From: Nitrosopumilus sp.
Lineage (GTDB): Archaea > Thermoproteota > Nitrososphaeria > Nitrososphaerales > Nitrosopumilaceae
Direction of reading: 5' to 3'
Assembly (NCBI GenBank): GCA_965214775.1
Contig: OZ243974.1
Location: 288,001-352,000, forward strand
Length of the DNA stretch: 64,000 bases
Part shown: piece by piece, positions 13,682-58,198 of the stretch
How the letters are laid out: the number at the start of each line of letters is the position of its first letter
How positions within the stretch are numbered: the stretch's first letter is position 1
The notes under the pieces: model-generated
What the model saw: the letters and a program-made list of their open reading frames with translations, nothing else
Database searches by the model: none
Told to the model about the DNA's origin: nothing
Made by a program: the position numbers and the translations under genes

Positions 13682-13791
13682 AGGCCCTCAGGCACTGCAG
13701 CACGCCTGCCTCTGAGACCTACGTCCTGCGGGCGTACTTTGACATCCAGCTATTAGGCCCTCAGGCACTGCAGCACGCCTGCCTCTGAGAC
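13682..13791. repeat. 37-bp direct repeat flanking a 36-nt unique insert
   Basis: AGGCCCTCAGGCACTGCAGCACGCCTGCCTCTGAGAC at 13682 and 13755. Confidence 0.95.
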
Positions 13792-14600
13792 GTCCATGTT
13801 CAGGATTTCTGAGCACATTGTGGCCGTGGCCTGTATGGAGGCAGGTGCCATGTGCATTGAAGTTATCATCCCCGTAATGTTTGGTCCAAACTCGGTTCCC
13901 GGCACGTTCCAGTCCCTGTCATCCTCCATACACACGTGGCCGCAGTCGGCGCATTCGCGTTTGTATGCGGTGTGCTGCTGTGTCGTGACCGGTTTGGGCC
14001 TCTTGGGGATCTCAGTCACGGTCTTTGAGAACATCCTTTTGGGCTTCTTCATGTTGGTGCTGCCGCACTTGTCGCACTTTTTGGGGCAGTGCTTTACAAA
14101 TTCGGTCGGCATCCTCTTGTGTGATATTCCCTTGTGTCCCTGCCTGCGGCCCGGCTTTGCCTTTGCAGATGCCGGTACGTTGCCTGATGCCTTTGCAGCA
14201 GCAGTCTTTTTCTGCCTGGTCGGAATCGAGTTCTGCGAGGATGGGGTGTGCGGGTTTTCGTAATATTTGATGTGCTGTTTGAGCTGCTGGTTTTCTGCTG
14301 TCAGCATCGTCTTTTCTGCCGTGACCTCGGCCAGCTGTTCGGTAAGCCCGACTATTGTCAGATCCTTGTCTGCGATGGTTCTATCCTTCCTGCCTAATTC
14401 GGCTATGGTGCGGGCCAGCTCGTCGCGCAGTATCTTGGTCTCTGAATCAGGCATGAATACAGAGAGTTGATTCGAAATTAGCAAACTCTGATTATTTGTG
14501 AACGAATGTGCATGAAACAACTCAAAATATCAACAAAATACAAATTATCTGTGAAATTACTTGAAAAATTCGTATGGTTTCTAATTTCGGATCATCTCTC

Positions 14601-14668
14601 AGGTAGGACGCCTCCCTTATGAGGAGGTCATGTAACGTGGCGGGGGTTCGAATCCCCCTCTTGACGCA
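14601..14668 (+). tRNA. 5'-truncated tRNA-like remnant (anticodon loop CTTATGA, long variable arm)
   Basis: CCTCC-CTTATGA-GGAGG anticodon arm and GGGGG-TTCGAAT-CCCCC T arm; 5' acceptor/D strand absent. Confidence 0.55.
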
Positions 14669-14856
14669 GACTGCCTTCCAAACAATTGATCCTGACCGAT
14701 TATTTGTACGGAACCTAGAAGATAGGAAGCGAATTGCCATCCTGCAATCAGCGATGACGTTTTTGGCTGCAATCACCCCGGTCATGCCGGCCATCCGGTT
14801 TTCTCCGTCTTTGTTCAGGGCTGAATTGGGGATTGATTCTGTCGGGGCATCAGAAG

Positions 14857-14986
14857 GGAGTTGTCGCCTAATTCCATTTATTTGGCTCAATCTGCCAGTT
14901 TTTCTAAACTTCCGCCCTTGTGCACGCCTGATCCACATGGCATCTCAATGGTTTTCAGGAATTCTGATGAATTAGGCGACAACCTC
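14857..14986. mobile_element. MITE family H (about 130 bp)
   Basis: TIR GTTGTCGCCTAATTC / GAATTAGGCGACAAC; copies 28963-29092 and 61899-62128 (9-bp target duplication GCTGTCTTG). Confidence 0.85.
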
Positions 14987-15231
14987 CTGCGCACGACCAA
15001 GAACTCATACACGAAGGAACCTCCTTCCTCAAGAACAACCATATGTGGAATGTGACAAGGATATCGCAGCCACACTCCGTATACAAGACACTTGAGCAGA
15101 TCGTGCAAGATAATACTATTCTATCCGCTTTATTGGAATTTCAATAACACAATACACATTTCCAGATATTACCATTCTAGTACCTCTGTGTCCTTGAGTC
15201 ATGCGAATAAGCCTTTCATGGTTCTTTTTTC

Positions 15232-15313
15232 GTACAACTTCAGGTCCTATTTAAACCGCCTAGGAATCTAGGAAGTATTTGCTTGCCAGTATAAATAGGA
15301 CCTGAAGTTGTAC
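15232..15313. mobile_element. MITE family D (82 bp, 8-bp target duplication, IS66-derived)
   Basis: TIR GTACAACTTCAGGTCCT; TSD CTTTTTTC here and CAAAAAGG at copy 16802-16883; same ends as the IS at 39371-41476. Confidence 0.92.
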
Positions 15314-15384
15314 CTTTTTTCTAAATTGACATGCAACTCTTTCTCCAAATATGGCATCACCTTCATCTAGATGTATTGGCATGA

Positions 15385-15795
15385 TTATTCAGGGCTATTG
15401 ATTAATTTTCCTTCGTTACGTAGAGAGTCAACAACATCCATTACCAACATTAAATCAAGACCATGCTCATTAGCAAAATCACTCGGATAGAAAATGTCAC
15501 CGACGTTAATTTCTTTCAAGAGAAGTTCACGTATTTGTTCGTTAGTGAGATCAGTATCTTCAGGAACTGCATCCATAGATGTGATTTTATGTTGTTTAAG
15601 AAGTTGCCACATGTTAGCATTATCTACAATTAATTTTTCAACGATAGAACGCAAATGTATGTAGGCATCAACTAAAGAAACATGCGCATCATCTGGTTTT
15701 TGATTTAAAATCCCATCACGAAAATATCTAAGTGATTGTTTGTTATCAGCTATTTCATTATCATGTTCACGTTCAGATTCAACTAGTAGCGTCAT
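15385..15795 (-). CDS. Hypothetical protein with C-terminal wHTH-like segment
   Basis: FYPSDFANEHGLDLMLVMDVVDSLRNEGKL resembles a winged helix. Confidence 0.6.
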   Translation of the reverse strand: MTLLVESEREHDNEIADNKQSLRYFRDGILNQKPDDAHVSLVDAYIHLRSIVEKLIVDNANMWQLLKQHKITSMDAVPEDTDLTNEQIRELLLKEINVGDIFYPSDFANEHGLDLMLVMDVVDSLRNEGKLINSPE

Positions 15796-15807
15796 AATAC
15801 ATTCTCC

Positions 15808-16104
15808 TCAATCATAGTATGTACGCATTGTCCTTTTAGGTTTATCGTATCTTTGCCATGCTGTTAATTGATATAAAGTGGCAGTGTATCGTACTGCTTT
15901 TAACACTTCATATAATTTAGATAAATCTCCAGAATCATAAACATCAGGCAAAGGTTTTGCAGCTTCGATCATTTCATTTTTTAGCTTGTCAGACACGTCT
16001 TTAGGTACAGAGTAATTTTCTATTGTATGAGACAAATTAGAATAAACAGATTCCAAAACTTCACTGATGAAGACTTCATTTTTTAATTCCAAATTCCAAG
16101 ACAA
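15808..16104 (-). CDS. Hypothetical protein (start uncertain)
   Basis: AT-rich ORF co-oriented with 15385-15795. Confidence 0.5.
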   Translation of the reverse strand: MSWNLELKNEVFISEVLESVYSNLSHTIENYSVPKDVSDKLKNEMIEAAKPLPDVYDSGDLSKLYEVLKAVRYTATLYQLTAWQRYDKPKRTMRTYYD

Positions 16105-16262
16105 ATTAACTAAATCATGTGCAATCCTGTAACAAACAGCATAATTTCCGTCTTCAAGATTTGCTTGAATATCTTTCAGACGCTCTGAATACAGAGTTTA
16201 GCTCTTTCATACCTCAATACAATTCCAGCAGTATGTATATTAGACTTTGCGTAGTCAATGGC

Positions 16263-16431
16263 GTATGAGTTTACCCCTCAGGTGACGTTTCCAGTAATGG
16301 TCTTGGCGACCATTTCACTCACGTTGCAATCCTGGGCGCGCCGGTTCATCGTACACATCATCAGCACGGTAAACATCTCCATGCCCTCCATGGTACGGAG
16401 TCCCTGGAATATCTTGCGCGCAATTACGGAC
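16263..16431 (-). mobile_element. IS66 3'-end remnant
   Basis: Near-identical to 12835-13002. Confidence 0.85.
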
Positions 16432-16577
16432 ATGATCAGGAAGGCGCTGACCAGAAACCCCGGGTACGTGGTCATCTACCTCTAGCAATCCTGCATTAAT
16501 CTGCCTGCAGTTGTAATTTTCATGCCTGAACAGACGGGGGATGTGACTTTAATTCTAGGCAGGGGCTTAACCTGTTA

Positions 16578-17277
16578 CGAAAAGTTCTTTGGCAAGAACA
16601 GGCAGCGGTGCTGGGCCCACATAATCCGGGAGGCAGATGCACAGAGTGAAAAAACGGATTCCCCGGAGGTTCGCGCCGCAGGCCAGCGCCTCAAGTGGCA
16701 GATGCATTGCGCCAAGGGGCTGGGGCCGCCGGAGGAGGCTGCCAGGCAGTACGACAGTCGGGTGGCAGAAACACGCGAGATTGCCGCCACATACAAAAAG
16801 GGTACAACTTCAGGTCCTATTTATACTGGCAAGCAAATACTTCCTAGATTCCTAGGCGGTTTAAATAGGACCTGAAGTTGTACCAAAAAGGAAGGATGCA
16901 ACAGCTATGCCACAAAGGTTGACAACGCCTCGGAGGTATGTGATCACGTCCCCCCCGTTGGCTAGGCGTGAAAATCATAACCATACGTGACAATTCGTGC
17001 CTGATTGGTAGGGGTAGGTGACCTCGTACCCTCGGAGTTTCTCTACACGTTTATGACGCGTCATGGGATGGATCCCACCAACAACCTAGCCGAGCGCATG
17101 CTGAGGCCGTCCGTAATTGCGCGCAAGATGTTCTAGGGACTCCGTACCATGGAGGGCATGGAGATGTTCACCGTGCTGATGACATGCACGATGAGATGGC
17201 GCGCCCAAAGTTGCAACATAAGTGAGATGGTCGCCAAGACCCTGACTGGAAACGTCGCCTGAGGGATAAACTCATAC
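16578..17277 (+). pseudogene. IS66 transposase C-terminal remnant with two MITE insertions
   Basis: QRCWAHIIRE and DPTNNLAERMLR; MITE D at 16802-16883; MITE at 16936-17029 with TSD CCTCGGAG; end AAACTCATAC at 17277. Confidence 0.85.
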
Positions 17278-17326
17278 GGTTGTTGAGAAAACAACAAATA
17301 AACATAATTGACGATTCTGAAAATCA

Positions 17327-17605
17327 TTGTCAAATAAAATCAAATGCTCCCACATCCTAGTTGCCAAACAAAGCGAGGCTTTGGCAATTTTAGAGAGAAT
17401 CAGGGCAGGAGAAAAATTTGGAAAGCTTGCAAAGAAGTTGTCAACAGACACGGGAAGTGCAAAAAAGGATGGCAATTTGGGCTATTTTACCAAAGGAATG
17501 ATGGTAAAGCCGTTTGAAGAGACTGCGTTCAAACTGCAAGTCGGAGAGATTTCAGAGCCAGTAAAATCAGAATTCGGATACCACATCATCAAGAGATTTG
17601 CATAA
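17327..17605 (+). CDS. Parvulin-type peptidyl-prolyl isomerase
   Basis: [31 protein letters not shown]. Confidence 0.95.
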
Positions 17606-17640
17606 GCTGACAAATTTTTTTGCATTCTCTGCTTTAGCAG

Positions 17641-17756
17641 GGCGGCCCTCGCTGATTTTCTGGACTGCCATTTCACAGCCAGATGCCCATGTTTGCAATC
17701 AATACGACTGAGAGGCGGCCCTCGCTGATTTTCTGGACTGCCATTTCACAGCCAGA
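17641..17756. repeat. 43-bp direct repeat flanking a 30-nt unique insert
   Basis: GGCGGCCCTCGCTGATTTTCTGGACTGCCATTTCACAGCCAGA at 17641 and 17714. Confidence 0.95.
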
Positions 17757-17954
17757 ATGAATTTCTTTGTGTAGTTTCCTTTCCTTTTGCAGCAAATTTT
17801 TCACTTTTTCTGGTTTTTAGATATCATCATACAAGTAAACTGATCAAAGAGGCTTTGATGATGACTGCCATCATCATATTAAATTCCATGTACGCAATAT
17901 GCCAAAAAAATACACAACACTTTTTTCAAGGAAAACCAGAAAAAAAGAGAGTGT

Positions 17955-18269
17955 GTGAGTGTGGTGGCAGTAATTACAGAAAAGATGCTTGATGAACTGC
18001 TAGACCAATTAGAAAAACCGATAGGCAACCTTGCAAAAGAATCGTTTGAAAACATGGAGCTTGATCAAGGTTTTCAAGGGGTTCATAATTTCCTGGATGG
18101 CCAATTTGACATCCGGTTGGAAAATTTGCTTGTTGCAAAAAATAGCAGTACGCATCACTTGGAATCGGGAATGAAAAACAAGATAATTCAGCGCAAATCA
18201 AAAATCATGAAAGATGCTGCAAAAAAATGTCAGGATCAAAGAAACGCATCAAGGCCGGATTGCCCTTGA
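17955..18269 (+). CDS. Hypothetical protein
   Basis: 104-aa ORF within the core-like region. Confidence 0.6.
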   Translation: MSVVAVITEKMLDELLDQLEKPIGNLAKESFENMELDQGFQGVHNFLDGQFDIRLENLLVAKNSSTHHLESGMKNKIIQRKSKIMKDAAKKCQDQRNASRPDCP

Positions 18270-19732
18270 TTCTTTTCAAGAACCTCGGTCATTTTGTTGC
18301 CCATGGATTTGGCCGCAGTCATTTTTCTTTGCCCAATCCAATAGTATGCCTCATCGATGGTGTTTTTAGCAATAAGGACAGATAGTCTTCCAGTGTCCTT
18401 TCGGCCGGTTCTTCCGCGCCTTTGAACGAATCGAATCGAGCTTGGCACATTGTCATAAAAAATCACCTGGTTTACTTCTGCAATATCGAGGCCCTCCTCG
18501 CCCACTCGTGTTGCAACTAGGACATCAAACTGGCCGTCACGGAATTTCTGCACGGTTTCAATTTGCTTTTTCTGCTTCAAGCCAGTTTGTCCGGCTTTTC
18601 CAATAAGAATCCCAGCAGAAACCCCCATCTCAGTTAGTTTGTTAAAAACCAAGTCTACCGAATCACGATAACTTGTAAAGATCAATGCCTTTCCAGGAAC
18701 AGATTCGACGATCTCCTTTAGTTTTGGAATTTTAGAGTGCTCGATGCCACAAGATTGTGCTTTTTTTGCCAAATGAACTGCTCTTGTAAAATTAGGATCA
18801 GCCTCAAAGAGCTCCCTTATACCAGCTCCCTTTTTTGCCTGTGTGCGCTCACAGAATTTCAGGAAGGGGGTAATCCCATGCACCTCCAAGATGTTCAGGG
18901 CATAGTGAATTCGGATTGCAGTAAACAAGGGCTTTGCAGAACGCCTGCTTTGACTCAGCACGTATTGTCGACTCTTCAACAGTCCAGACAGGGACTGTCG
19001 TTCTGTAAACCTGATGCCGTTTTTTCTTAATGTATCGTATCTTTCATCCAATGCAGTCTTCAATAACGTCTGAATTGATTTTAGTTCTGAAGGAAGCTCA
19101 ACATTAATCCATTTGATGTTCGTCTCTTGGATGTACGGTTTTACATCAGGACTGTCTTCGGTACGTTCTGCAACACTGGAAATTCTTAGTTTTTTCAGAA
19201 TTTCAATCGCTTTTTCTTTTTCACTTGGCAGTGTGGCAGTCATGCCAACTATTCGGACGTCGTTGTTTTCAAGGCGTTCAGCAATTCCAGAATAGGCATA
19301 ATCTCCGACGGTCCTATGTACCTCGTCAAAAATTACAAGCGAGAATTGATCAGAAGAGATGATTTGTCTATCCAGATCATTTTTTGTGATTTCAGGAGTG
19401 GCACAGATTACGCTGTTGTTCCAAAGCTTCGTTCTTTTTTGAACTGTATCCTCACCTGTGACCAGCGAGATATCATCCAGGGTAAGGCTGTCTTTTAGGA
19501 ATTCATAGTGCTGGTTTACAAGAACACGGGTGGGTGCCAGAAACAAAACGCCGCCTGTCCCCCTTGACAGGTATTCGGCAATTACCTGCAATGCAATTGC
19601 AGTCTTTCCCAGACCGGTAGGCAAAACCACAACACAATTCTCGCCAATGGCCTGATTTGCCAGATTTACCTGATAGTCTCTTTTTTCAACAGAGCCGCTC
19701 CGGACATATTTCCTCTCAATGTACTGGGTCAA
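18236..19732 (-). CDS. Hef/FANCM-like (ERCC4-related) SF2 helicase
   Basis: LPTGLGKT, DEVH, MTAT, GEEGLDI, QRRGRTGR. Confidence 0.92.
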   Translation of the reverse strand: MTQYIERKYVRSGSVEKRDYQVNLANQAIGENCVVVLPTGLGKTAIALQVIAEYLSRGTGGVLFLAPTRVLVNQHYEFLKDSLTLDDISLVTGEDTVQKRTKLWNNSVICATPEITKNDLDRQIISSDQFSLVIFDEVHRTVGDYAYSGIAERLENNDVRIVGMTATLPSEKEKAIEILKKLRISSVAERTEDSPDVKPYIQETNIKWINVELPSELKSIQTLLKTALDERYDTLRKNGIRFTERQSLSGLLKSRQYVLSQSRRSAKPLFTAIRIHYALNILEVHGITPFLKFCERTQAKKGAGIRELFEADPNFTRAVHLAKKAQSCGIEHSKIPKLKEIVESVPGKALIFTSYRDSVDLVFNKLTEMGVSAGILIGKAGQTGLKQKKQIETVQKFRDGQFDVLVATRVGEEGLDIAEVNQVIFYDNVPSSIRFVQRRGRTGRKDTGRLSVLIAKNTIDEAYYWIGQRKMTAAKSMGNKMTEVLEKNQGQSGLDAFL

Positions 19733-19852
19733 TTACAGAAAAATCCGTGTTTGTAGATTTTATGCTTTCGTGTTGTAAAAGACTAGTCAGAGCTCAATGT
19801 TGAAAACACGCCAAAATTGAGCCTAAAAAGATAGGAATGGGGTGTGTGGAGG

Positions 19853-20044
19853 CTAGTCCAGCTTCTTCTTTAATTTGTTGACCAGGGCCATCTCCTCACG
19901 AAGATGTTTTTTCAGTAAACGATCATGAGCTTTTTTGTGAACACTGTAGGCATTGTTCAAAGATTTTTTGGTCTTTGCCCTTTTTACAGCATTTTGAAAC
20001 TTTTTGTGTATGGCGTTTACTTGAGATGAATAACTTGCCATCAC
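19853..20044 (-). CDS. Small basic hypothetical protein
   Basis: 63-aa Lys-rich helical ORF. Confidence 0.6.
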   Translation of the reverse strand: MMASYSSQVNAIHKKFQNAVKRAKTKKSLNNAYSVHKKAHDRLLKKHLREEMALVNKLKKKLD

Positions 20045-20256
20045 AAGGATCTTCTAAAAGATACTAAAGAAGTTTGTGCATCTGCTATTCATTCATTATG
20101 GCAACGGGCACAAGTCTTTGAGTCAAAGTAGGTCATAACTACGCGTAAAAAACCTCAATTATTTCTGCTCGCTGCCATAACAGGACACAGACAGGATGAT
20201 CGGCATCCAAATTTTCATAGCGTGATCCATATATTGAACAAAGCTGGAACAACTGT

Positions 20257-20781
20257 GTGAGTACGTTTGAGAGGCCCAACTGGGACGAATATTTCATGCT
20301 TCAGGCAGAACTGGCAAAATTAAGATCAAACTGCATGGCAAGGCAAGTTGGCGCAGTCATTGTCAGAAACAACAGGCAGCTGGCAACGGGGTACAACGGA
20401 ACTCCTCCGGGAATTACAAACTGCTTTGATGGCGGATGTGCCAGGTGCAAGCTAAGAATGGAGGGAAAAGTGGAATCCGGGGAATCGTTGGACAGGTGTC
20501 TGTGCAACCATGCCGAGGCAAACGCGATTATGCATTGTGCCATATTAGGAATCGAGGCCGGAATAGACGGCGCGATCCTATACACAACGTTCGTTCCGTG
20601 CCTAGAATGCTCCAAAATGGCAATTACAATCGGAATTAGAAAATTTGTTTGCCTTGACTTGTATCCGGAGACGGACTTTGGTTTGCTTCAGGATGCGGGA
20701 GTGGAGGTTGTTCAGCTAGACAAGGGGAAGATTGCAAGATGGGTAAGAGAACTCGCAAGTAGGCACGAAAAATCTGTGTGA
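20257..20781 (+). CDS. dCMP deaminase
   Basis: RPNWDEYF, TGYNG, HAEANA, PCLEC. Confidence 0.92.
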   Translation: MSTFERPNWDEYFMLQAELAKLRSNCMARQVGAVIVRNNRQLATGYNGTPPGITNCFDGGCARCKLRMEGKVESGESLDRCLCNHAEANAIMHCAILGIEAGIDGAILYTTFVPCLECSKMAITIGIRKFVCLDLYPETDFGLLQDAGVEVVQLDKGKIARWVRELASRHEKSV

Positions 20782-20785
20782 TAAA

Positions 20786-23344: not shown

Positions 23345-23351
23345 CATAAAA

Positions 23352-34293: not shown

Positions 34294-35546
34294 GGCTTTT
34301 TGCTCCTCAGCTCTTTTGCCTGTTTTGCTATATTAACTGATGTTATGCCGTGTTTTTCCAAGAGGAGCGGAATTTCATCATCTCTGGCAGATTCGCCAAA
34401 CATGTCCTGGGCGCCAATACGCCTGACATGCACCGGATAGGATTCGGAGACTGATTCTGCCACTGCAGAGCCCAGACCTCCAAAGATATTGTGCTCTTCG
34501 GCAGTTACGATACAGCCAGTCTCCCTTGCGGCTTTTTCCAGAATCCCGTTGTCGATGGGCTTGATGGAGAACATGTCAAGCACCCTGCATGAGATTCCGT
34601 CCCGTTGCAGGGATTCGGCGGCCTCTAATGCCATGTGGACCGTAATTCCGCATGCGGCAATCGTGCAATCGGCCCCGTCTCTGATTGTGATGCCTTTTCC
34701 AGTACTGAATTCCTGGGATTCAGAGTGCACCAGAGGGGTTTTGGAACGGGCCATTCTCATATAAAACGGGCCGTATTGGTTTGCCATCAGTCTGGTTAAT
34801 TTTGAGACAGCAATTGTATCGGCAGGAATAAAGACCCTAAAGTTGGGAATCGCACGCATGATCGCAATGTCCTCAAGCTGCTGATGGGAGCCGCCATCAG
34901 GCCCGACAGATAGCCCGCCATGAGAGACCACCAGTTTTACATCGAGTCCTCTACCCCTCTGCATCTTTTTTCCAGTAGGAGACATGGGCGGGGGGTTGGG
35001 AGGAGGAGGAGGAATGGAGGAAGGGGGGTTGGGAGGAGGAGGAATGGAGGAAGGGGGGTTGGGAGGAGGAGGAATGGAGGAAGGGGGGTTGGGAGGAGGA
35101 GGAATGGAGGAAGGGGGGTTGGGAGGAGGAGGAATGGAGGAAGGGGGGTTGGGAGGAGGAGGAATGGAGGAAGGGGGGTTGGGAGGAGGAGGAATGGAGG
35201 AAGGGGAGGAAGGGGAGGAAGGGGAGGAAGGGGAGGAATAGAAAGGAGAAGGATATGCAATGTTGTTTCTTATTTGGTCGACTGCGCGTCCGGGAAGGAA
35301 GATTGCATACGTGCTTGCAAAAGACGTCTTTCCAGAGGCGGCAAGACCGGCAGAAATTGTAACAAGGTTTGCCTCGGCGATTCCTACATTGAAGAACCTG
35401 TCGGGAAATTCCCTTCCAAAGCCTGACGTTTTTAACGAATCGGTGGTGTCTGCTCCCAGAACTATGATGTCAGGATTTTCCCTTCCCAGCAGGATCAGAG
35501 ACTTGGAATACTCAGAACGCATGTCAGTCATTACGGCATCATTCAT
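34290..35546 (-). CDS. tkt: Transketolase C-terminal subunit with a Pro-rich insertion
   Basis: FFNVGIAEAN, DGGSHQ, TAEEHN; start ATG 35546. Confidence 0.92.
   Translation of the reverse strand: MNDAVMTDMRSEYSKSLILLGRENPDIIVLGADTTDSLKTSGFGREFPDRFFNVGIAEANLVTISAGLAASGKTSFASTYAIFLPGRAVDQIRNNIAYPSPFYSSPSSPSSPSSPSSIPPPPNPPSSIPPPPNPPSSIPPPPNPPSSIPPPPNPPSSIPPPPNPPSSIPPPPNPPSSIPPPPPNPPPMSPTGKKMQRGRGLDVKLVVSHGGLSVGPDGGSHQQLEDIAIMRAIPNFRVFIPADTIAVSKLTRLMANQYGPFYMRMARSKTPLVHSESQEFSTGKGITIRDGADCTIAACGITVHMALEAAESLQRDGISCRVLDMFSIKPIDNGILEKAARETGCIVTAEEHNIFGGLGSAVAESVSESYPVHVRRIGAQDMFGESARDDEIPLLLEKHGITSVNIAKQAKELRSKKP
34990..35237. repeat. 30-bp in-frame tandem repeat x7 (PPSSIPPPPN) plus 9-bp repeats
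   Basis: GGAATGGAGGAAGGGGGGTTGGGAGGAGGA units. Confidence 0.95.
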
Positions 35547-43771: not shown

Positions 43772-43953
43772 CTGCCCTAGTATCCGCGACTGTTCCTGTC
43801 AGGCTTGCCGACGTTTGGGTTTCTCCATCCGTGTTTTTCCATCATGTGGTTCATTAGTCGAATGTCATCATCACACGTTTCCCCGCATACAGAGCAGTCT
43901 ACCACCATGAAACGGCTTGAGGGATTCAATATTAATAGATTGGAACTTGGAAA

Positions 43954-44070
43954 ATGCCAGCACTGCTGCTTCCCAAGGGCTCTCGCATCTTAGTAACACA
44001 ACAGCGACGTCAGGTTTGACTTCCAAGTTCGGAAAGGGATTGGGTCGCACCCTAACGCTATGGCCGGCTT
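43954..44070 (-). rRNA. rrf: 5S rRNA
   Basis: Reverse strand GCCGGCCATAGCG...CCCTTTCCGAAC...GAAGTCAAACC...GTGCTGGC with terminal helix pairing. Confidence 0.9.
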
Positions 44071-44319
44071 GAAAGACAAGGCCAGAATCCCAATTATTAA
44101 CGTAGCGAAACCCCAGGTTCTTCTGTCAACTTACGGGGCTGGCTGCGGCTCTTCTTCTCCGCATGTCAGCGGCCGGGGCTTTTGAGGCACTCTGCGCGAC
44201 GATGGTCTTCCACTTGCTGTCGCCTTTGACCCCGATTCCGGCCCTCAGCGCAGGCGCAGATACGGGACAGAGTTAGTCAAGTTGGCAGATTCGGATCATG
44301 CATGAAGAAGTTTACAAAA

Positions 44320-45760: not shown

Positions 45761-45823
45761 TTCTCTCCTCTAAAGAGAGAAAAGTTACATAAAATATACG
45801 GTTTGAGGCAAATGCTCCCACAT

Positions 45824-45920
45824 AAGGGCAATGAGCGTGTCCTGTCCTGTCCTGAGGCAAGGGAGACGCTGGAAAAGTACAAAGGCGAGATCACAAGGGC
45901 AATGAGCGTGTCCTGTCCTG
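45824..45920. repeat. Direct repeat of at least 26 bp, 71 bp apart, second copy cut by a MITE
   Basis: AAGGGCAATGAGCGTGTCCTGTCCTG at 45824 and 45895. Confidence 0.85.
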
Positions 45921-50184: not shown

Positions 50185-51063
50185 GTGGTATCGATAGTAA
50201 AGCGAAAGCGAAACAACAAAACATTTTACTACCTTCAGCACAAAATACGAAGTCAGAAAAGACAGAGGGAGATCTACCTGGGCAAGGAGATCCCAGACGA
50301 CATTGAACAAATAAAGTATGATTTCCTGCTAGAGTTCTACAGGTATGACTGGATCTCCAAGCTGGAACAAATCCAGAAAAACTACAAAAAAACAAGGGCT
50401 AGGACTCCAGAGTCCGCACGAAAAAAAGAGACAGAGGAATTCTCCATCAGATTCACCTATAACACTCAAAAGATAGAGGGCTCCACCCTGACCCTGCGAG
50501 AGACTGCGGATCTCATACTGGACGGGATAACCCCGTCAAGCAAGCCTGCAAGCGACATGACTGAAACTAGGATGCACCAGAAGCTGTTTTTGCAGATCAT
50601 GCACAAAAAGCAGGATCTGTCGCTGAGAACTGTTCTGTCGTGGCACAAGTCGCTCTTTGGCGAAACAAAGCCCGACATTGCAGGCAGCGTCCGTGATTTT
50701 GATGTGCGCATAGGCGGAAGCAGGTTCATCCCACCCAAATCAGAGGCAGTCCCCATTCTACTGAAGGGCTTCTTTGCCTGGTACAGGCAAAGCCAAGGGA
50801 AGCTAAATCCTGCTGAGCTGGCCGCCCTAGTCCACCTGAAGTTCGTAACAATACATCCGTTTGGTGACGGAAACGGCAGGATATCAAGGCTTATGATGAA
50901 CCATGTCCTGAATCGATTTGACTATCCGATGCTTGACATAGAGTATGCAGACCGGAGGTCGTATTATACGGCGCTTGAGAGATCAAGTGCAAGAAATAGC
51001 GACATTGTGTTTTTGCAGTGGTTCATGAAGAGATACATCAAGACATTTAGTGATTTTCTTTGA
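50185..51063 (+). CDS. Fic-family protein (paralog of 47479-48360)
   Basis: TQKIEG and HPFGDGNGRISR. Confidence 0.92.
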   Translation: MVSIVKRKRNNKTFYYLQHKIRSQKRQREIYLGKEIPDDIEQIKYDFLLEFYRYDWISKLEQIQKNYKKTRARTPESARKKETEEFSIRFTYNTQKIEGSTLTLRETADLILDGITPSSKPASDMTETRMHQKLFLQIMHKKQDLSLRTVLSWHKSLFGETKPDIAGSVRDFDVRIGGSRFIPPKSEAVPILLKGFFAWYRQSQGKLNPAELAALVHLKFVTIHPFGDGNGRISRLMMNHVLNRFDYPMLDIEYADRRSYYTALERSSARNSDIVFLQWFMKRYIKTFSDFL

Positions 51064-51104
51064 CGGGATACTGCACTCTGGCGTGGGATGCAAAAGGAGG
51101 ACTG

Positions 51105-51215
51105 GTAACTGATCGGGCTCTGGAAGCTATTCCTGATTTTAGGCACAAATTCTGTTTGAACGGCCCTTTTTGGTGGCAAAATTCGTGCCTGATCTTCCAG
51201 AGCCCGAGCTGCTAC
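51105..51215. mobile_element. MITE family I (about 110 bp)
   Basis: TIR GTAACAGGTCGGGCTCTGGAAG-like; copies 52704-52814 and 63174-63283. Confidence 0.85.
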
Positions 51216-51544
51216 GATTTAAGACGCATATTTGATGACAAATGATTGTAAAAATTAAAAAATTCCAAACACTAGACAATTCTTTTTTAAAATCCATGGC
51301 AACGCGTGTAAATCCACATCCTTTACCTGGAGGAGTAGACTTTAGTACTTCCCAGGTGTACTTTTACAGGCATGGTAACTATGTAATTTGCAGAAGACCT
51401 TATGCGTAAACGAAATTAGCGGCTATGCCGTGCCGGGTCTGCAAAAGCACACATAGGAAATACTGGCTTGATGGTTGAGCTGCGCAGTCTGCTAAAGAAC
51501 TATGCCGGAAGCCTAGCCTAACGCAGATATGATTGATCCGGATT

Positions 51545-51955
51545 CTATCCAAAGCAGTCTGTATCTTTCATGTTGTTAGAACCTACGGGATATTCAGCAA
51601 AGGTTTCAAGTGTTGCAAGATCCTTACATACCAATTTTGGACCCACGTGGCCTCCAAATATCGTTACCTCCAGCTGGGCAATGTGTGGAGGCTCTTCAAC
51701 GGCAGCTGACCAAACAATAACATGACTGTTTAGTAAACCGTCAGTGACTGTTACCGGCTCCCTAGTATGGTCGGGATATTTTTCCTTGTAGTTCTGAACC
51801 AACCCAGTTTCCTCTAACATGTTTTTCCATTGCTTGCCACTCAAATCTGCAATGCCTGCAAAATGCAAGCCGGCCTCATACATGCCAAAATAAGAAATCA
51901 CTAAAATTCCCACGACAACGGATGCAATTATGACGATCTTTCTGTTTTTAGTCAT
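51545..51955 (-). CDS. Membrane-anchored hypothetical protein
   Basis: N-terminal TM/signal segment, two C-terminal Cys. Confidence 0.65.
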   Translation of the reverse strand: MTKNRKIVIIASVVVGILVISYFGMYEAGLHFAGIADLSGKQWKNMLEETGLVQNYKEKYPDHTREPVTVTDGLLNSHVIVWSAAVEEPPHIAQLEVTIFGGHVGPKLVCKDLATLETFAEYPVGSNNMKDTDCFG

Positions 51956-51989
51956 GTGGGATCCAAAAAGCAGTTCGTCCCCCCCCCCC

Positions 51990-52250
51990 TTTTATCTGAC
52001 ATCATACTCCCTCCTGTCTGCCCGTCAATAACGGTTTCCTCCTTGGGCATCTTTCTGAGAAATGCTTGGGAGGACGTCTCCTGGTTGTCCCAGTCCGGCG
52101 ACCTGTGGGGCCTGTCGTGATTGTACCACTGCATGAACAGGTCTATCGGGTCACTCTTTCTCATCATGATCTCCTCGAACTCGTGCAGTTTGCGCTGGAT
52201 CTCCCCGTGGAGGCGCTCGACCTTTCCGTTGGTCTGTGGACGTCCTAGGC
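51990..52250 (-). pseudogene. IS481/integrase-core transposase remnant
   Basis: PQTNGKVERLHG and WYNHDRPH. Confidence 0.8.
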
Positions 52251-52414
52251 CTGTAGTCAATACATAAAAAATGGAATATGATTTTAACACATCGTGCCTA
52301 TTTCACCAAAAAAATATTCCATTTTCAACTGCATGCACTAGAGCAGAAATAATTGAGGTTTTTTACGTGTAGCTATGACCTGCTTTGACTCAAAGACTTC
52401 TGCCCGTTGCTATA

Positions 52415-52703
52415 TCACAAAAATCCGTGGATACTTTTGAAAAGTTCGTTGAAGAGAACAAAGATGAACTGGCTACACTGGAAATCATATACTCCAAGCC
52501 ATACAGAATGCGCGATATTACCTTTGATGACATAAAGAATCTGTCAAAGGCAATACAGACGCCTCCCTACTCGCTAACGCCGGAGTTGCTGTGGAGTGCA
52601 TACGGGAGACTGGACAGATCCAAGGTAAGGAGGAATCCTGTAAAGAAGCTGACCGATCTGATATCCATCATAAGATATTCCACCGGAAAGCAGGACATGC
52701 TGG
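52415..52703 (+). pseudogene. hsdR: Type I restriction enzyme R subunit C-terminal remnant
   Basis: FEKFVEENKDELATLEIIYSKPY...LWSAY...LTDLISIIRY, bounded by MITEs. Confidence 0.65.
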
Positions 52704-52814
52704 GTAACAGGTCGGGCTCTGGAAGTTCAGGCGCGAGTTTTGTTATCTCGGGGAGGCCTCCCATGTAGATTCGTGCCTAAAATCAGGAACAGCTTCCAGA
52801 GCCCGACCTGTTAC

Positions 52815-53330
52815 GTAAATCTTGCAAAAAAACACGAAATATTCACGAAGGTTTTAGATCTTGTCTGTAGATCCGACATTACGCTGGTCAACGTAATTAT
52901 TTTCAAAGACAGGATGAAGGACAAATACGTAACTCCAAAGCCATTGGAATATTCCTGGACTCTTATTGTCGAACGTTTTGAGTATTTTCTAAGACAGAAA
53001 CCTAAAGAGACCAACAACGGATTGCTTTTCGTAGACGCCAGTCAAAAGATTCCAGAGTCGGAAATCAAAGACATAGTTTGGAGGCTGGTTAGAACAGGCA
53101 GTTTGTGGCAACGAGTTGAGCATGTTATCGAAGATCCGATTTTCACCAAATCACATTTGCGAAATTTGATTCAGCTTGCAGATATGATCGCATATGTAAT
53201 TCACAAGCATTACAAAGGCGATCCCAAATTCGCAGATTGGTTTGAGATGTTAAAACCAAAAATGTATCAGCCTAACGGAAAATTGCATGGTTTTGGCATC
53301 AAAGAATTTCCTGACTGGTATAAACAATAG
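52815..53330 (+). pseudogene. DUF3800-family protein, N-terminally truncated
   Basis: IEDPIFTKSH...IQLADMIAY motif; 5' end replaced by a MITE. Confidence 0.7.
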
Positions 53331-54383
53331 CAGGAAGCAGGTCCACACAGATGCAGAGTACTACTTCCCTACAATCGCACCGATGCGATTCTTACCGTAT
53401 TATGTCATCTTGCCATATATTTTCTTTTTGTATGTGACAGCTAAGTGAAAAGTACCCCAGTCAGGCAGAAAATCAAGGAATTAGACCGTCTTGACAACAC
53501 TATCAGATGCAAACAGATCAATTAGGGTGCGGCCCCGTGGTTTTCGTTGAAGCAAAAATCCAGACAGTGCCGCGATCTTGAGAACAACCCGCGCATATAT
53601 AGTGAAAAACACAAGTTCGTGAAATCCTAGACTTGATTCCGAGGCATTCCATGATGTCTTGATCTTCACGAACTTTTGTTTCACACTATATGAACATGTT
53701 GCAGATGGTAGTTTGTTGCATAACCCTTCCTAAAATTTGAAACTTTACTGAAAATCACCGGAATGATCAACTAATTCTGACCGAAAAAGTAATGGATCAT
53801 GAGGATGCCTCGTATGGTATACATTGACACACACGGACAATGCAAAGTACGTAGAGAGAGGGGCAGGCCTGGTCGTCAAGTACAACCCGGACTGGGAGAA
53901 GGATCTCAAGGCTGCCAACCGCCACAAGGAGGGCGCCCCGTTCCTGTACGCAGAAGGCATGATATAGCAACGGGCAGAAATCTTTGAGTCAAAGTAGGCC
54001 ATAACTACGCGTAAAAAACCTCAATTATTTTTGCTCGTTGCTATAATGGCCGCAGCCGCCCTCAGGACCGCATTCATGCTAAAATACAGGCAGCTGTCAG
54101 GTATGCTCGGGGAGATGCTAAAGGGTGCGGACTCGCCGTGTTACACCACGATATTCAGAAGGATACAGAAGCTTGACGTCGACATTGCAGAGAACATAAT
54201 CACGGTGCGCGACAAGACCTGTAACCTAGTCATGATAGCTGACGCCACGGGCCTCAAGCAGCACAACCGGGGCGAGTGGATACGCAAGAAATGGAAGGTA
54301 AGGCGAGGATTCGTCAAGATGCACCTGATGGTTGATGCAGACACCAAGCAGGTGCTGGCAGTATCTGTCACAAGTGATGCAAT

Positions 54384-55868
54384 AGACTTTATGCGTAATT
54401 GGAAAATCTGATCTAAAAATACAACACAACAGATCATGGTTTGCATACCTACAACCATAAAGATCAGTAATGGTTCTCTAACGGTATGGGTTCAGATGTC
54501 GAGCTTGTCCAAACACTGCAAGAGCAAAACAAGAGTTTGGTAGAGCAAAACGAGCATCTGAAGAGCAGGCTTGCGTTTGAGGACTCGTTGTGGCAGTCCG
54601 AAGAAAACAAGACAAAAAGAGTCGTGCGCGGCGGGACGCCTCTGCGGATGCACGCAATCGAGGTTGCAGACGGCATAATCGGCGATCCGGTGCGCCTTCG
54701 CAACGTCACGGGATGCACAAAGGAGTCATTTGAGATCATACTGGAGCGCTTTACGGAAGAAGTCATGGACGACGAGGACAGACCCCTGTTCTGGGAGGAC
54801 GACGTAAGAGGCGGCGATGCCGGAAACCGGTGCAAGCTGTACATCAGGCACGCGCTGCTTGCAGTACTCATGAGCATAAGGACCAAGGCAACGCAGCATC
54901 ATCTGGCCGCAACGTTTGACGTCGACCAGTCCACAATGTCCAGGTACCTCCGGTACGGTGCCGTGTTACTGCGCCAGATCCTGCCTGCCTCCGAAAAGCT
55001 AACAAGCATCATCTGCAAGACCCCGGCAGGCAAGCTGGAGGAGGTGCTGATCCCAAAAAAGACGCTCCTGATTGACGGCACCCTGACTCCGGTAGACAGG
55101 CCCGGGGACAGGACCGCAAGAAAGACCAGATACTCGGGAAGAAAAAAGCGGCACATGTTCAACACGATAATTACCTCGAACCTGGACGGCCTCATACTGC
55201 ACTGCGGCAAGACTGTGGACGGAAGCGTCAACGACAAGGGCGTGATGAACGCAGGGGGCGGCCCGGACTTTGGAAGGCACACCGGATCAATGAGGAATGC
55301 AAAAAACGCAGACGATCCGGAAGAGGCGTTTGTGATTTACAGCGACCTGGGATTTGAGGGCATTCAAAAGATGCTTCCGGGCGCCATACACAGGCAGCCC
55401 CCAAAGAAGCCCAGGGACGGGGATCTTACTGCAACGCAAAAGAGGCGCCGCAAGCAGATAAGCAGGGTTCGCGTCAGAGTGGAGCACCACATAGGACGGC
55501 TCAAAAGATATGGCATTCTTACCATGCCGTTTGGCGGAACTGCCAAGGATCTCAATTATTTCATGCAGATAATCACGGGTCTTGAGAACCTCAAGACGAT
55601 GTTGAAAAGGAAAAAACACTACGGCCGGCTGCTGCAGCAGCTGCATCTGCTGCCAGACACATGACATACGGCGGTACGGACCGCCATTCTTTCTGACTTG
55701 TCAGCGGGGCACATTGCCGTGCTGCATGGTTGCGCACGTTCTTTTGGCGCAACTGACTTTTACGTGCGTCATGACACGAGATGCATGCGGTAATTTGATC
55801 CGATCAGCGCATTTGCGTTTGGAAAAGCCTACGGAATTTTTAATCACGGTCGATTACGCATAAAGTCT
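54384..55868 (+). mobile_element. IS5/ISL2 (PIF-Harbinger-like) element, complete
   Basis: TIR AGACTTTATGCGTAAT; AAT target duplication. Confidence 0.92.
54486..55664 (+). CDS. DDE_Tnp_4 transposase
   Basis: HTH (FDVDQSTMSRY), LIDGT, YSGRKKRH, DLGFEG, RVRVEHHIGRLK. Confidence 0.92.
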   Translation: MGSDVELVQTLQEQNKSLVEQNEHLKSRLAFEDSLWQSEENKTKRVVRGGTPLRMHAIEVADGIIGDPVRLRNVTGCTKESFEIILERFTEEVMDDEDRPLFWEDDVRGGDAGNRCKLYIRHALLAVLMSIRTKATQHHLAATFDVDQSTMSRYLRYGAVLLRQILPASEKLTSIICKTPAGKLEEVLIPKKTLLIDGTLTPVDRPGDRTARKTRYSGRKKRHMFNTIITSNLDGLILHCGKTVDGSVNDKGVMNAGGGPDFGRHTGSMRNAKNADDPEEAFVIYSDLGFEGIQKMLPGAIHRQPPKKPRDGDLTATQKRRRKQISRVRVRVEHHIGRLKRYGILTMPFGGTAKDLNYFMQIITGLENLKTMLKRKKHYGRLLQQLHLLPDT

Positions 55869-56662
55869 AATCGGCGACAGCACGGAACTGCCGGCACTGC
55901 TTGAGGATGCAGTCAAGAACATCAAGAAGGAAGAGGAGGAAGAGGAGCAGAACCGCACCGACAGCGCGGATGCAGTCAAGAACATCAAGAAGGAAGAGGA
56001 GCAGAACCGCACCGACAGCGCGGATGCAGTCAAGAACATCAAGAAGGAAGAGGAGCAGAACCGCACCGACAGCGCGGATGCAGTCAAGATCCCCAACATG
56101 CTTGCAGACGGGACATAGCCGCTGGCTGTACTCGGTACCGGCGCGAATCCAGATATACCGGGAAAGATCCTGCTTGCAGACGGCGCATACGGCTCAAGGA
56201 AAAACGTAGCCGAGTGTCACAAACGCGGCATAAAACCGCTCATACGGCTTTTGACAAGTTGCAATGCAAGGGGCAAGGGCACCGGCGACAAGTGGGGCCG
56301 GCTGGTGCGGTGGCAGCTCGGGGGCGGCCCCGAGGTGCCTGTGGGTGATCTCTCAAAGGAGGAAAGACAGGAGAACCTGCGGTACTGGAAGAGCACGGTC
56401 GGCTTTGGCAGCAGATGGATCGTCGAGATCGTGATATCGGCCATAAAGCGTATGTTCGGCGAGTGCGTAATGGCCCTCAAGTGGTCCAATATAGTGCAGG
56501 AAGTAAAGCTGAGGATATGGCTGTACAACAAGTGGATTGCAGAGGCGGTGGCTGCCGTGTAGGAACCGGGCGCCGGTCATGATCCGGGCGGACTGACTTG
56601 GCTCTAGTCGGAGTTATGTAACAAACTAGGCAACCGCAGAACTTTATATAATTCAGCGAGGA

Positions 56663-57061
56663 ATGATCACTGTGATTACCCCACATGATGCACGAAGATT
56701 CATAGACAGCACTGGTGCCGATTACGGACAGGATGTCGTTCTGCCTGATTGCATAGACACAAGTGAATGCCAAGAGTTCTTTGGTACAAGGTGTCCTGAC
56801 AATGTTCATGTCAAGAGTGACAGAACAGCGCACGTAGACAGGGCAGACCCACGCGACGACCCGATCGGGCATCTCAAATATGACGTGGGCGTTCCGTATG
56901 CCGTAATGGCAGCTCCTGTGGGCGCCATGATCGGTGCCGCGGCAATGAAACGTAACAGGAAAAACGGTGCCCTTGTAGGAGGAACCATCGGTCTCGTTCT
57001 GGGCATGGTTGCAGATACCGTAAATAATTCTAAAAACCACAACAGTTGGAGCTTGACATGA
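56663..57061 (+). CDS. Hypothetical protein with C-terminal glycine zipper
   Basis: GAMIGAAA...GALVGGTIGLVLG. Confidence 0.65.
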   Translation: MITVITPHDARRFIDSTGADYGQDVVLPDCIDTSECQEFFGTRCPDNVHVKSDRTAHVDRADPRDDPIGHLKYDVGVPYAVMAAPVGAMIGAAAMKRNRKNGALVGGTIGLVLGMVADTVNNSKNHNSWSLT

Positions 57062-57194
57062 TGGAGGACGTAGATTTTGAAATCCAGTACAAGCCTGAAA
57101 GATACTACAGGAGTTCCAGGCATTATTATGATGATGACGATGGTGAGCTGGATTTGGATGGCCTGAGCCTAAGCTCTCATTCCTAGAAAACACG

Positions 57195-58198
57195 ATGCCT
57201 AGCTTTAGCGAGATTCAAAAGGAGATACTGGAGGAAAGGGCTCCGGAAACCAAGCATGATACGGTCTGAATCTGCGGCCCAATATGCAAATATCGCAAAA
57301 GAAGGAGGAAAGGGCTCCGGAAACCAAGCATGATACGGTGAGAAGAAGATATCTTGCGAAAATGTCCGAAAAGACAGGCAGAAACACAATACTGTACTAC
57401 TCGGGATGGCTACAAAAGCCGGTCAGGAGCATTTCCGCGTTGACGTCGATCAGCGACAATGACAAAAATGGCTTTATGAGTGTAATACGAGGACTGGATG
57501 TCTCCAAAGGTCTTGACATAATACTGCATACCCCCGGGGGAGACATAGCAGCTACGGAATCCCTCATAGACTATCTTAACCAAAAATTTCACGGAGACAT
57601 GAGGGCGATTATCCCACAACTTGCCATGTCCGGTGGGACGATCATAGCTTGTGCGTGCAAGGAAATAGTGATGGGAAAGCAATCCAGCCTGGGACCCATC
57701 GATCCGCAGATAAACGGGCTGGCCGCATCTGGGATCGTGTCAGAATTTTATCATGCAAGCAAGGAGATGAAACATGACAGAAGCAAGATCAACGTGTGGG
57801 GACCGATCATATCCAGTTATCCGCCATCACTTGTTGAAAACTGCAAGAAGGCGATATCCTGGTCCAAGGAGCTTGCGTCAGACTACCTGTCCGGCTCCAT
57901 GTTCAGAGATGATTTAAAGCTCGATCATGGTCCAGTCCAGCAAAAAATTGATGGCATCATACGCCTTTTGACGGATCAAAACATGACCAAATCACATTCA
58001 AGACACATACCAATGCCGGTATGCCAAAATACCTGATTGAAGATAGTAGAGATGGAAAAAGATCATGATCTGCAAGACATCATTCTCTCGGTACACCACG
58101 CCTCAGCACTGACAATTATGAACACGCCTACTGTCAAAATAATAGAAAACCAGAACGGGCAGGCATACATTTCTGGATATTCCAAGACGCCTGCGTGA
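57195..58198 (+). pseudogene. ClpP-class serine protease (SDH_sah/S49-like), disrupted
   Basis: LHTPGGD, AMSGGT, LGPIDPQ, SHSRHI; 74-bp insertion near the 5' end and in-frame TGA at 58034. Confidence 0.8.
57230..57339. repeat. 36-bp direct repeat flanking a 38-nt unique insert
   Basis: GGAGGAAAGGGCTCCGGAAACCAAGCATGATACGGT at 57230 and 57304. Confidence 0.95.

Follow-up and report, generated by a model that had tools for sequence, protein, structure and literature searches.

Dispersed spacer-sized inserts between duplicated target sequences in a Nitrosopumilus chromosome are probably scars of off-target Cas1-Cas2 integration

We analysed a 64-kb stretch (the window) of the 2.83 Mb chromosome of Nitrosopumilus sp., an ammonia-oxidising archaeon. 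The initial annotation had described four loci in the window at which local sequence is directly duplicated around a short insert, and we found all four where it had placed them, with the sizes it gave. Such a four-locus pattern is far more than chance would produce. At locus 1, the duplicated target is coding sequence of an IS66-family transposase, and the gene is split:

13682..13718, no strand: locus 1 target copy 1, 37 nt, identical to copy 2, period 73
13719..13754, no strand: locus 1 insert, spacer-like, 36 nt
13755..13791, no strand: locus 1 target copy 2, 37 nt, 100% identical to copy 1
13464..14520, minus strand: IS66-family transposase gene split by locus 1, ORFs 13753-14520 and 13464-13703

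The 5' part of the split gene matched zf-IS66 (E 0.0016, below the Pfam cut-off) and the 3' part matched DDE_Tnp_IS66 (E 4e-7). When locus 1 was aligned to an uninterrupted paralogous IS66 copy (G000:C1:50607), we observed a single clean 73-nt gap. Ten empty paralogous sites were found for this locus, the best of them aligning at 97.5% over 159 nt without gaps, and these empty sites show that the event was an insertion. On deletion of one unit, a 258-aa open frame became one of 330 aa, confirming that the frame is restored as had been claimed. The insert was traced to G000:C1:1025026, where 34 nt align with 2 mismatches, and to 482715. Its source match extends 2 nt further left than the insert itself, and the true duplication is probably 36-37 nt.

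Locus 4 lies at the start of a gene for a ClpP-like protease:

57230..57265, no strand: locus 4 target copy 1, 36 nt, codons for EERAPETKHDTV of the protease gene, period 74
57266..57303, no strand: locus 4 insert, 38 nt
57304..57339, no strand: locus 4 target copy 2, 36 nt, identical to copy 1
57284..58036, plus strand: ClpP-like SDH-type serine protease ORF, restarted from the insert ATG (PF01972, E 3e-21)

The original frame, from the ATG at 57195, ends one codon into the insert. The insert itself supplies another ATG, at 57284, whose frame is that of the downstream gene, giving a restarted N-terminus of MQISQKK followed by EERAPETKHDTVRRRYL. Here too the frame was restored on removal of one unit, from 258 to 271 aa. 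The insert is 100% identical to G000:C1:1393038-1393076 on the minus strand.

The two remaining loci have these parts:

17641..17683, no strand: locus 2 target copy 1, 43 nt, identical to copy 2, period 73
17684..17713, no strand: locus 2 unique stretch, 30 nt; judged by its source, the insert measures up to 34 nt
17714..17756, no strand: locus 2 target copy 2, 43 nt, identical to copy 1
45821..45849, no strand: locus 3 target copy 1, 29 nt with 1 mismatch, 26 nt exact from 45824, period 71
45850..45891, no strand: locus 3 insert, 42 nt (42-45 nt depending on the boundary)
45892..45920, no strand: locus 3 target copy 2, of which 45895-45920 is the exact 26 nt

Locus 2 sits just 3' of a PPIase gene (17327-17605). 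Its insert matched G000:C1:1470015 on the minus strand at 29 of 30 positions, and the match enters copy 1 by 3 nt and copy 2 by 1 nt, a microhomology. The duplication at locus 3 is atypically short, and its extension to 36 nt matches at only 4 of 10 positions. At 94% identity, positions 10-42 of the locus 3 insert (33 nt) matched at least eight genomic copies of a multi-copy element lying elsewhere. No source in the genome matched the first 9 nt, which are filler; within them, TCCTG may have arisen by slippage of an adjacent TCCTG repeat. The inserts had been correctly reported as absent from the rest of the window, and all four have near-identical sources elsewhere in the chromosome. We also checked whether independent runs span the junctions. 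Logan contigs from two runs, each belonging to a different study (X1 record 1 and X5 record 9), covered the whole locus 3 unit with 0 differences, and a third contig (run X6 record 24) runs from copy 1 of locus 4 into its insert.

We then scanned the whole genome. The prediction that many such units would exist held: we curated 49 isolated repeat-insert-repeat units, and one further ectopic site where two inserts alternate with three copies of the target. We counted 230 isolated direct repeats of two copies at periods of 30-160; of these, 65 fell at periods of 70-76, with the anticipated sharp peak at 72-74. Outside this band, the periods were nearly all multiples of 3, and we read those as coding repeats. 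Periods of the 49 curated units range from 69 to 76 (mean 72.7), and 38 of them are not multiples of 3. The two copies are identical in 24 of the 49 units, suggesting that these units are recent. Uninterrupted paralogous copies of the target exist for 14 of the 49; at the orthologous sites, 0 of 20 relatives matched at the DNA level. The suggestion that the units disrupt genes stood only in part. Some genes are split, but many units lie at gene ends, between genes or in IS copies, or are in-frame 72-bp additions within long ORFs.

The lengths fit a target duplication of 36 bp. Exact duplication runs of 36, 37, 38 and 39 nt occurred in 12, 8, 4 and 1 units, against 14.1, 7.0, 2.6 and 0.9 expected for a true 36-bp duplication with chance extension. 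In the 13 units with shorter exact runs, extension to 36 nt matched at 61 of 96 positions (64%, versus a null of 34%; 0 of 2000 trials reached this value), which identifies them as decayed 36-bp duplications. Insert length is then 33-40 nt by period minus 36, mostly 35-38 nt, and 33-42 nt as judged by source sequences. Five units have duplications of 43-46 nt and correspondingly short inserts. Microhomology accounts for only part of their length, and judged by sources these duplications are still 39-41 nt.

Sources elsewhere in the same chromosome were found for 21 of the 49 inserts by a loose criterion and 17 by a strict one. These are distant loci, so the inserts are not templated from adjacent DNA. 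For the remaining inserts we found no source in the chromosome, and four of the source-less inserts gave 0 matches to viral contigs. No common motif flanked the 17 source sequences, and the expected shared PAM did not emerge; this negative is weak evidence, since the sample is small (17) and orientation was inferred. As had been noted for the four loci, terminal inverted repeats are lacking (0 of 49 inserts with at least 6/8 terminal matches; mean 2.04 versus a null of 2.00) and the inserts do not resemble each other (0 non-self BLAST matches among the 49). IS elements, MITEs and casposons likewise insert between direct target duplications. However, IS duplications are typically 2-14 bp and those of casposons about 14-15 bp, whereas the ectopic insert is about 36 nt long, encodes nothing and is flanked by a 36-bp duplication. 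We therefore rejected transposon (IS or MITE) insertion.

The genome does carry CRISPR-Cas, as a Cas1 explanation had required. An intact type I-B-like operon contains cas1, cas2, cas4, cas3, cas5, cas6b and cas7, all as open frames; Cas1 is 336 aa (E 7e-69). Array 1, an orphan with no cas genes alongside, has 12 repeats of 36 nt and spacers of 36-39 nt. Array 2, which is cas-adjacent and matches Rfam CRISPR-DR7, has 68 repeats of 37 nt and spacers of mostly 33-37 nt. Both arrays have periods of 70-76, the same unit geometry as the ectopic units. Unlike in the arrays, each ectopic "repeat" is a different local sequence. The units are thus not bona fide CRISPR arrays: each site has its own two-copy sequence, no Rfam CRISPR-DR match lies within the 64-kb window, and the repeats of the two native arrays occur nowhere else in the genome. 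The insert sources also set the two apart, as none of 78 array spacers had a source in its own genome. This contrast is predicted by counter-selection of self spacers in arrays, which excerpts of PMC5737086 describe for P. furiosus.

The duplications also share a sequence bias. Of 98 duplication ends, 40 have G as the 5' base (genomic G ~23.5%), with weak further preferences for T at +2, G at +4 and A at +6 to +8. The ends resemble the leader-proximal repeat end of array 2 (z = 4.0, 0 of 2000 trials; z = 3.1 without position 1), although the likeness is weak per site.

Together, we consider it likely that the units are scars of off-target Cas1-Cas2 spacer integration ("neo-CRISPR"). The Cas1-type integrase proposed in the initial annotation gains support from the period peak, the co-occurrence of cas1-cas2-cas4 with arrays, the distant insert sources and the junction-spanning contigs. 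The enzyme and the order of steps are what we infer. Cas1-Cas2 would join both 3' ends of a ~34-40 bp fragment to ordinary chromosomal DNA, one end to each strand at points 36 bp apart. Fill-in of the resulting gaps would then double the 36-bp target and leave one copy on each side of the fragment, in the same way as the repeat is doubled during spacer uptake by an array. The cell's own chromosome supplied about 40% of the fragments, in many cases through multi-copy elements, and the favoured sites start with G, resemble the leader-proximal repeat end and are capable of forming a hairpin. Because the "repeats" that flank self-derived inserts are unlike those of CRISPR, no crRNA and no autoimmunity should result, and such inserts could persist. 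Several observations count against this explanation. The sources share no PAM, whereas selection of one is to be expected from a type I-B system that has Cas4; the one array with cas genes beside it has a repeat of 37 nt, unequal to the 36-bp duplication; the five duplications of 43-46 nt are explained only in part; and the 9-nt filler at locus 3 is without a source.

A smaller share of the probability that we assign to integrase action falls to a second adaptation module that either has since disappeared or travelled on a mobile element, and that worked with the orphan 36-nt array; the reaction would be the same and only the enzyme would differ. The duplication length equals the repeat length of this orphan array, whereas 17 of the 30 core events are too short for a 37-bp ruler. 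Ectopic periods differ from those of array 2 (mean 72.7 versus 72.2, Mann-Whitney p 0.007) and show no significant difference from those of array 1 (72.7 versus 73.5, p 0.09). The better-fitting array lacks its own integrase, as a genome search gave a single cas1 candidate and it has no adjoining cas genes. In a relative, G107, a large array of the same 36-nt repeat family adjoins a differently scoring Cas1 (E 6.5e-95), and a module without Cas4 would suit the absence of a PAM. Against such a module, the duplication ends are closest to the leader-proximal end of array 2 and less like the orphan-array ends (z 2.8 and 1.2), and the same genome search found no second cas1 or cas1 remnant. Its loss would also have to be very recent, given the 24 units with identical copies. 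Furthermore, one integrase able to serve several arrays in trans is described for Thaumarchaeota in excerpts of PMC6563490.

It seems improbable that a non-CRISPR process adds ~72 nt as a genomic copy plus a compensating target duplication, for example through a template-switching error of repair or replication. Taken as exact runs, duplications spread over 23-46 nt and inserts over 26-50 nt, while their sum is narrower (69-76), and the five units above pair long duplications with short inserts. This compensation is, however, largely an artefact of where boundaries are drawn, as judged by the extension of short runs to 36 nt, and the main class fits a fixed 36-bp duplication with chance extension. 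The period range is that of the native arrays, in which the repeat is fixed. The sources are distant and unrelated rather than adjacent DNA, and the 5'-G and repeat-end-like bias is specific to the integrase model. The lack of a PAM would suit the non-CRISPR process. The relatives bear on both sides. In the same scan, G100, which has no arrays, showed no period peak (4 of 84 pairs at 70-76), in line with integrase action. G107 also showed no peak and at most 2 candidate scars in 800 kb, despite its Cas1 and arrays, which suits a non-CRISPR process and indicates that possession of the system is not sufficient. Short-read assemblers can mis-join at repeats, and some of the 72-bp periods are multiples of 3 within long ORFs, but an error of assembly or polishing, like an origin as chance or coding repeats, is very hard to reconcile with contigs from other studies that carry locus 3 entire and the copy 1/insert junction of locus 4, with inserts that exactly copy distant loci, with clean empty sites in paralogues, with the 38 of 49 periods that are not multiples of 3 and with the lack of a peak in G100.

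The mechanism of off-target integration is already known; its natural scale here is unusual. Neo-CRISPR formation was reported by Nivala, Shipman and Church (2018, Nat Microbiol 3:310; via 10.1101/148544, PMC7054753, PMC6698737 and PMC9456107, each in excerpt). As in the E. coli case described there, a spacer-length fragment lies at a non-CRISPR site and a repeat-length target is duplicated. Site reuse can begin a new array, and one site here holds two inserts. According to these excerpts, the E. coli events were rare in a population over-producing type I-E Cas1-Cas2; beyond E. coli, the excerpted text of 10.1101/148544 speaks only of "circumstantial evidence" from two other species. By comparison, the present case involves an archaeal genome from nature, which has a type I-B-like system and shows ~50 events in the assembled consensus, with many self-derived inserts. 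In vitro, P. furiosus Cas1-Cas2 used non-CRISPR sites at repeat-length spacing with a preference for G1, T2 and A6 (PMC6698737, in excerpt). The sites here similarly combine repeat-length spacing, repeat-like features and a preference for G, which was strong in that assay. Unlike the genomic scars with their 36-bp duplication, those data come from purified proteins acting on a plasmid, and the repeat there is 30 bp long.

If the neo-CRISPR explanation is right, the reaction occurs in nature, in archaea, at a rate that lastingly marks genome content. The natural target sites would expose the intrinsic preferences of the integrase (a 36-bp ruler, a 5'-G, a repeat-end-like motif and a hairpin tendency), and the inserts would sample acquisitions without an autoimmunity filter (~40% self-derived versus 0 of 78 in arrays). 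Tentatively, we see the ~50 scars as a natural record of capture and integration that autoimmunity has not filtered. The 36-bp ruler, mismatching the only cas-adjacent array, might then point to a recently lost or mobile module or to an intrinsic ruler unlike the cognate repeat, and a failure of fidelity control might have made adaptation a continuing internal source of mutation, splitting genes, substituting gene starts and inserting in-frame segments of 24 residues into proteins. The cost of carrying CRISPR adaptation genes would include transposase and glycosylation genes that have been split, gene starts that have been replaced and proteins with 24 extra residues in frame. The ectopic site that already holds two inserts illustrates how a new array could originate. 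For annotation, units of 71-74 bp produce apparent frameshifts and pseudogenes.

A direct-repeat search of the window recovered the four loci of the initial annotation, each as a family of two copies, spaced 73, 73, 71 and 74 nt apart; in each unit, local DNA is duplicated around a spacer-sized insert, apart from any CRISPR array. The effect of each unit on its surroundings is as follows.

Locus 1, window 13682: splits an IS66-family transposase gene
Locus 2, window 17641: lies immediately past a PPIase gene
Locus 3, window 45824: lies at the 5' end of a 189-aa ORF
Locus 4, window 57230: in a ClpP-like SDH protease gene, truncates the first 24 codons; the insert provides a new in-frame ATG

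The surrounding genome (G000), in which the window occupies C1:288001-352000, is a single contig of 2,833,656 bp with 47.1% GC, from an archaeon with ammonia monooxygenase (ribosomal protein S4e present; Archaeal_AmoA, E 3e-116). A scan of its whole length, as proposed with the original observation, bore out the expected periodicity: exact direct repeats peak sharply at periods of 70-76, with harmonics, and two true CRISPR arrays contribute part of this peak. After excluding repeats that occur a third time or whose spacer resembles the flank, we retained 230 isolated pairs with periods of 30-160, of which 65 fall at 70-76; pairs with other periods are almost exclusively at multiples of 3. This distribution led us to reject a chance origin. 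Among 67 rows of period 69-77, 18 were discarded as low-complexity tandem repeats or members of a six-copy 25+50 family within a repeated gene, leaving a curated set of 49 units. One doubtful unit (G000:C1:2288313) was kept although the flank of its "source" is its own target, as in a MITE-like family, which suggests that such a repeat family, and not simple spacer capture, is involved there. The duplicated segments of this unit and of the one at 934396, both outside the window, have GGGCTCTGGAAG in common.

The same scan was applied to two relatives. The whole contig of G100, a 1.67 Mb genome of the same genus without array-like periodic repeats, gave 84 isolated pairs with 4 at 70-76, and 800 kb of G107 (one third of that genome) gave 39 pairs with 5 at 70-76, three of them from one coding-repeat family. 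G000 is thus exceptional among the three scanned genomes. Since G107 carries Cas1 and large arrays yet has few such pairs, a CRISPR system alone is not sufficient for the pattern. We also noted three Cas1-like genes of 409-416 aa within 65 kb of G100 (G100:C1:1416863-1482301), the genome whose scan found no array-like repeats; we assume that these may be casposon-type Cas1.

We then asked whether the DNA is real. Locus DNA was found in sequencing runs of several studies: locus 3 is covered in full, with 0 differences, by Logan contigs of runs X1 and X5, and at locus 4 a contig of run X6 reads through flank and copy 1 and on into the insert; contigs there end at the 36-nt repeat and no single one spans the whole unit. 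None of the matches listed, all of them Logan contigs, has a joint at which 71 or 74 nt are left out. The DNA of X1, X5 and X6 may come from the same strain. Because contigs from other runs carry the units, we rejected an artefact of this one assembly.

Uninterrupted copies of the targets give the polarity of the event. Fourteen of the 49 targets sit in multi-copy elements, whose other copies run uninterrupted through flank, single copy and flank; at locus 1, alignment with an uninterrupted IS66 copy leaves one clean 73-nt gap. The locus 4 region had no DNA-level match in 20 relatives and hence no orthologous empty site for comparison, and a homologue search with an Mrr-domain host protein returned no usable orthologue spanning the unit. 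For an in-frame unit in a glycosyltransferase gene (G000:C1:1207545), the region matching the duplicated ASDSTLY is single in seven homologues with divergent surroundings, so that a protein-level empty site there is only suggestive.

The lengths of the duplications point to a fixed ruler. Exact runs measure 36, 37, 38 and 39 nt in 12, 8, 4 and 1 units, respectively, where a fixed 36-bp duplication plus chance identity predicts 14.1, 7.0, 2.6 and 0.9; under a 37-bp model, 17 of 30 core units would be impossibly short. Where the exact run is 33 nt or shorter, as in 13 units, extension to 36 nt on the better side matched at 61/96 positions (null, 34%; 0/2000 trials), and these units are older 36-bp duplications carrying a few substitutions. 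Most of the apparent near-constancy of repeat plus insert remarked on in the initial annotation is accounted for by such decayed 36-bp duplications. Unit periods span 69-76 with a mean of 72.7. Five units have duplications of 43-46 nt, and in the three of these with a known source the source match reaches 3-5 nt into the duplication. By our count, source matches extend by at least 3 nt on 3/32 sides against ~0.5 expected, which suggests microhomology between the spacer end and the target flank. After this is allowed for, 39-41 nt are still duplicated, so the 36-bp ruler allows some slack at ectopic sites. The two copies are identical in 24 of the 49 units, and mismatches total 31/1826 nt; the process is therefore both recent and extended in time.

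The targets are also biased. Of 98 duplication ends, 40 have G as the 5' base, and 32/49 units have G at exactly one end; alignment on that end revealed a weak preference for T at +2, G at +4 and A at +6 to +8. Duplicated segments fold slightly more stably than GC-matched random 36-mers (-6.24 versus -5.06 kcal/mol, p 0.003). According to an in vitro study of P. furiosus Cas1-Cas2 (PMC6698737), integration at non-CRISPR sites keeps repeat-length spacing and prefers G1, T2 and A6; the target bias and spacing observed here are the same kind of behavior.

Inserts match elsewhere in the genome in 21 of 49 units by a loose criterion and in 17 by a strict one (at least 75% of the insert, without gaps, E ≤1e-4), and several sources are multi-copy elements. 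All four window loci are among the units with a source: the locus 4 insert is a 100% copy of G000:C1:1393038-1393076, the locus 2 insert matches 29/30 nt at 1,470,015, the locus 1 insert comes from another repeated gene, and that of locus 3 from an element present in 8 or more copies. In contrast, such a match elsewhere was found for 0/78 array spacers. In a P. furiosus study (PMC5737086), the cell's own chromosome supplies most new spacers, with transposons as hot spots, and lethal autoimmunity purges self spacers from arrays; the contrast seen here fits that literature, and self-derived inserts would persist at ectopic sites because crRNA cannot be made there. The flanks of 17 source sequences lack a common motif, so the shared PAM that the initial annotation had proposed to look for did not emerge. 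For four of the inserts that lack a genomic source, viral contigs yielded 0 exact matches, although requiring identity over 28-29 nt makes this a weak test.

Both IS or MITE insertion and bona fide mini-arrays were rejected as readings of the units. All sequence-level features of off-target Cas1-Cas2 integration except a PAM were found, and from the sequence evidence we consider it likely that the units arose by this reaction, as an unusually rich natural case of a known phenomenon. The closest published counterpart, as citing papers describe it, is the neo-CRISPR unit created by off-target Cas1-Cas2 integration; according to one of these papers (10.1101/148544), the evidence outside E. coli was circumstantial and concerned two species. 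Among the papers listed on neo-CRISPR, off-target or ectopic spacer integration and Thaumarchaeota CRISPR, none describes a natural genome rich in units of this kind, and "ectopic spacer" in most of them means a non-leader position within an array.

Which integrase was at work was considered against the native arrays.

Array 1, ~1,977,219-1,978,062: orphan array, 12 repeats of 36 nt, spacers 36-39 nt; last repeat degenerate
Array 2, ~2,420,114-2,425,007: cas-adjacent array, 68 repeats of 37 nt (Rfam CRISPR-DR7 match on the minus strand), spacers mostly 33-37 nt

The genome has a single cas1, whose closest relative from a named record is 52% identical ("Thaumarchaeota archaeon" MAG). It belongs to an operon with every reading frame open, in the order 591-aa gene, cas7, cas5, cas3, cas6b, cas1, cas2, cas4, directly followed by array 2; the 591-aa gene has no Pfam match and is possibly cas8. 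Array 1 has no adjoining cas genes (its neighbors include a metallopeptidase-like ORF) and its repeat has no Rfam match; the same 36-nt repeat family serves the large cas1-adjacent arrays of G107. In a pre-specified comparison, duplication ends resembled the leader-proximal repeat end of array 2 (z 4.0, 0/2000 trials; z 3.1 with position 1 omitted) more than the two repeat ends of array 1 (z 2.8 and 1.2). The mean period is 72.2 in array 2 and 73.5 in array 1, with that of the units lying between. Array 1 is the better fit for the 36-bp ruler and for the lengths of the inserts, array 2 for the similarity of the ends. If Cas1-Cas2 made the units, the maker may be the extant module or, rather less probably, a second one since lost.

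With one unit deleted, ~36 of the 49 loci fall, by our count, within open spans of 100 aa or more. Units of period 72 are frequently in frame within long ORFs, such as those of a 615-aa Mrr-domain protein, an 833-aa PMT/laminin-G protein and a 562-aa protein. Where the period is not a multiple of 3, units are found mainly in IS copies, in intergenic DNA or at gene ends, which is what would be left after purifying selection. Outside the window, G000:C1:1264000-1312000 is a hot spot that holds 6 units where 0.83 are expected (P 2e-4), as well as a three-copy site with two inserts that is additional to the 49 units (copies at 1,266,834, 1,266,906 and 1,266,979). The region is a glycosylation island with glycosyltransferase, sulfotransferase and PMT genes. 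At the three-copy site (G000:C1:1266834-1267014), a 36-nt hairpin-containing sequence occurs three times with two spacer-sized inserts between, and the 5' end of the first copy deviates, a deletion of 1 nt being among the differences; the site resembles an incipient two-spacer "neo-array" in an ectopic position.

The window also holds other repeats. Microsatellite-like tracts, unusual for a prokaryotic chromosome, lie at 9078-9167, 59761-59838 and 8586-8635 and consist of (CAGG)n or (CAGG/CATG)n plus a 10-nt CCTGCCTTCT tandem repeat. Tandem repeats of coding type, with units of 30, 54 and 57 nt, occupy 34944-35243, 55905-56096 and 721-891, and similar GGATGCAGTCAAGAACATCAAGAAGGAAGAGGAG-type repeats recur at further genomic loci. 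The minus strand carries a 5S rRNA gene at window 43952-44071 (Rfam RF00001, 73 bits).
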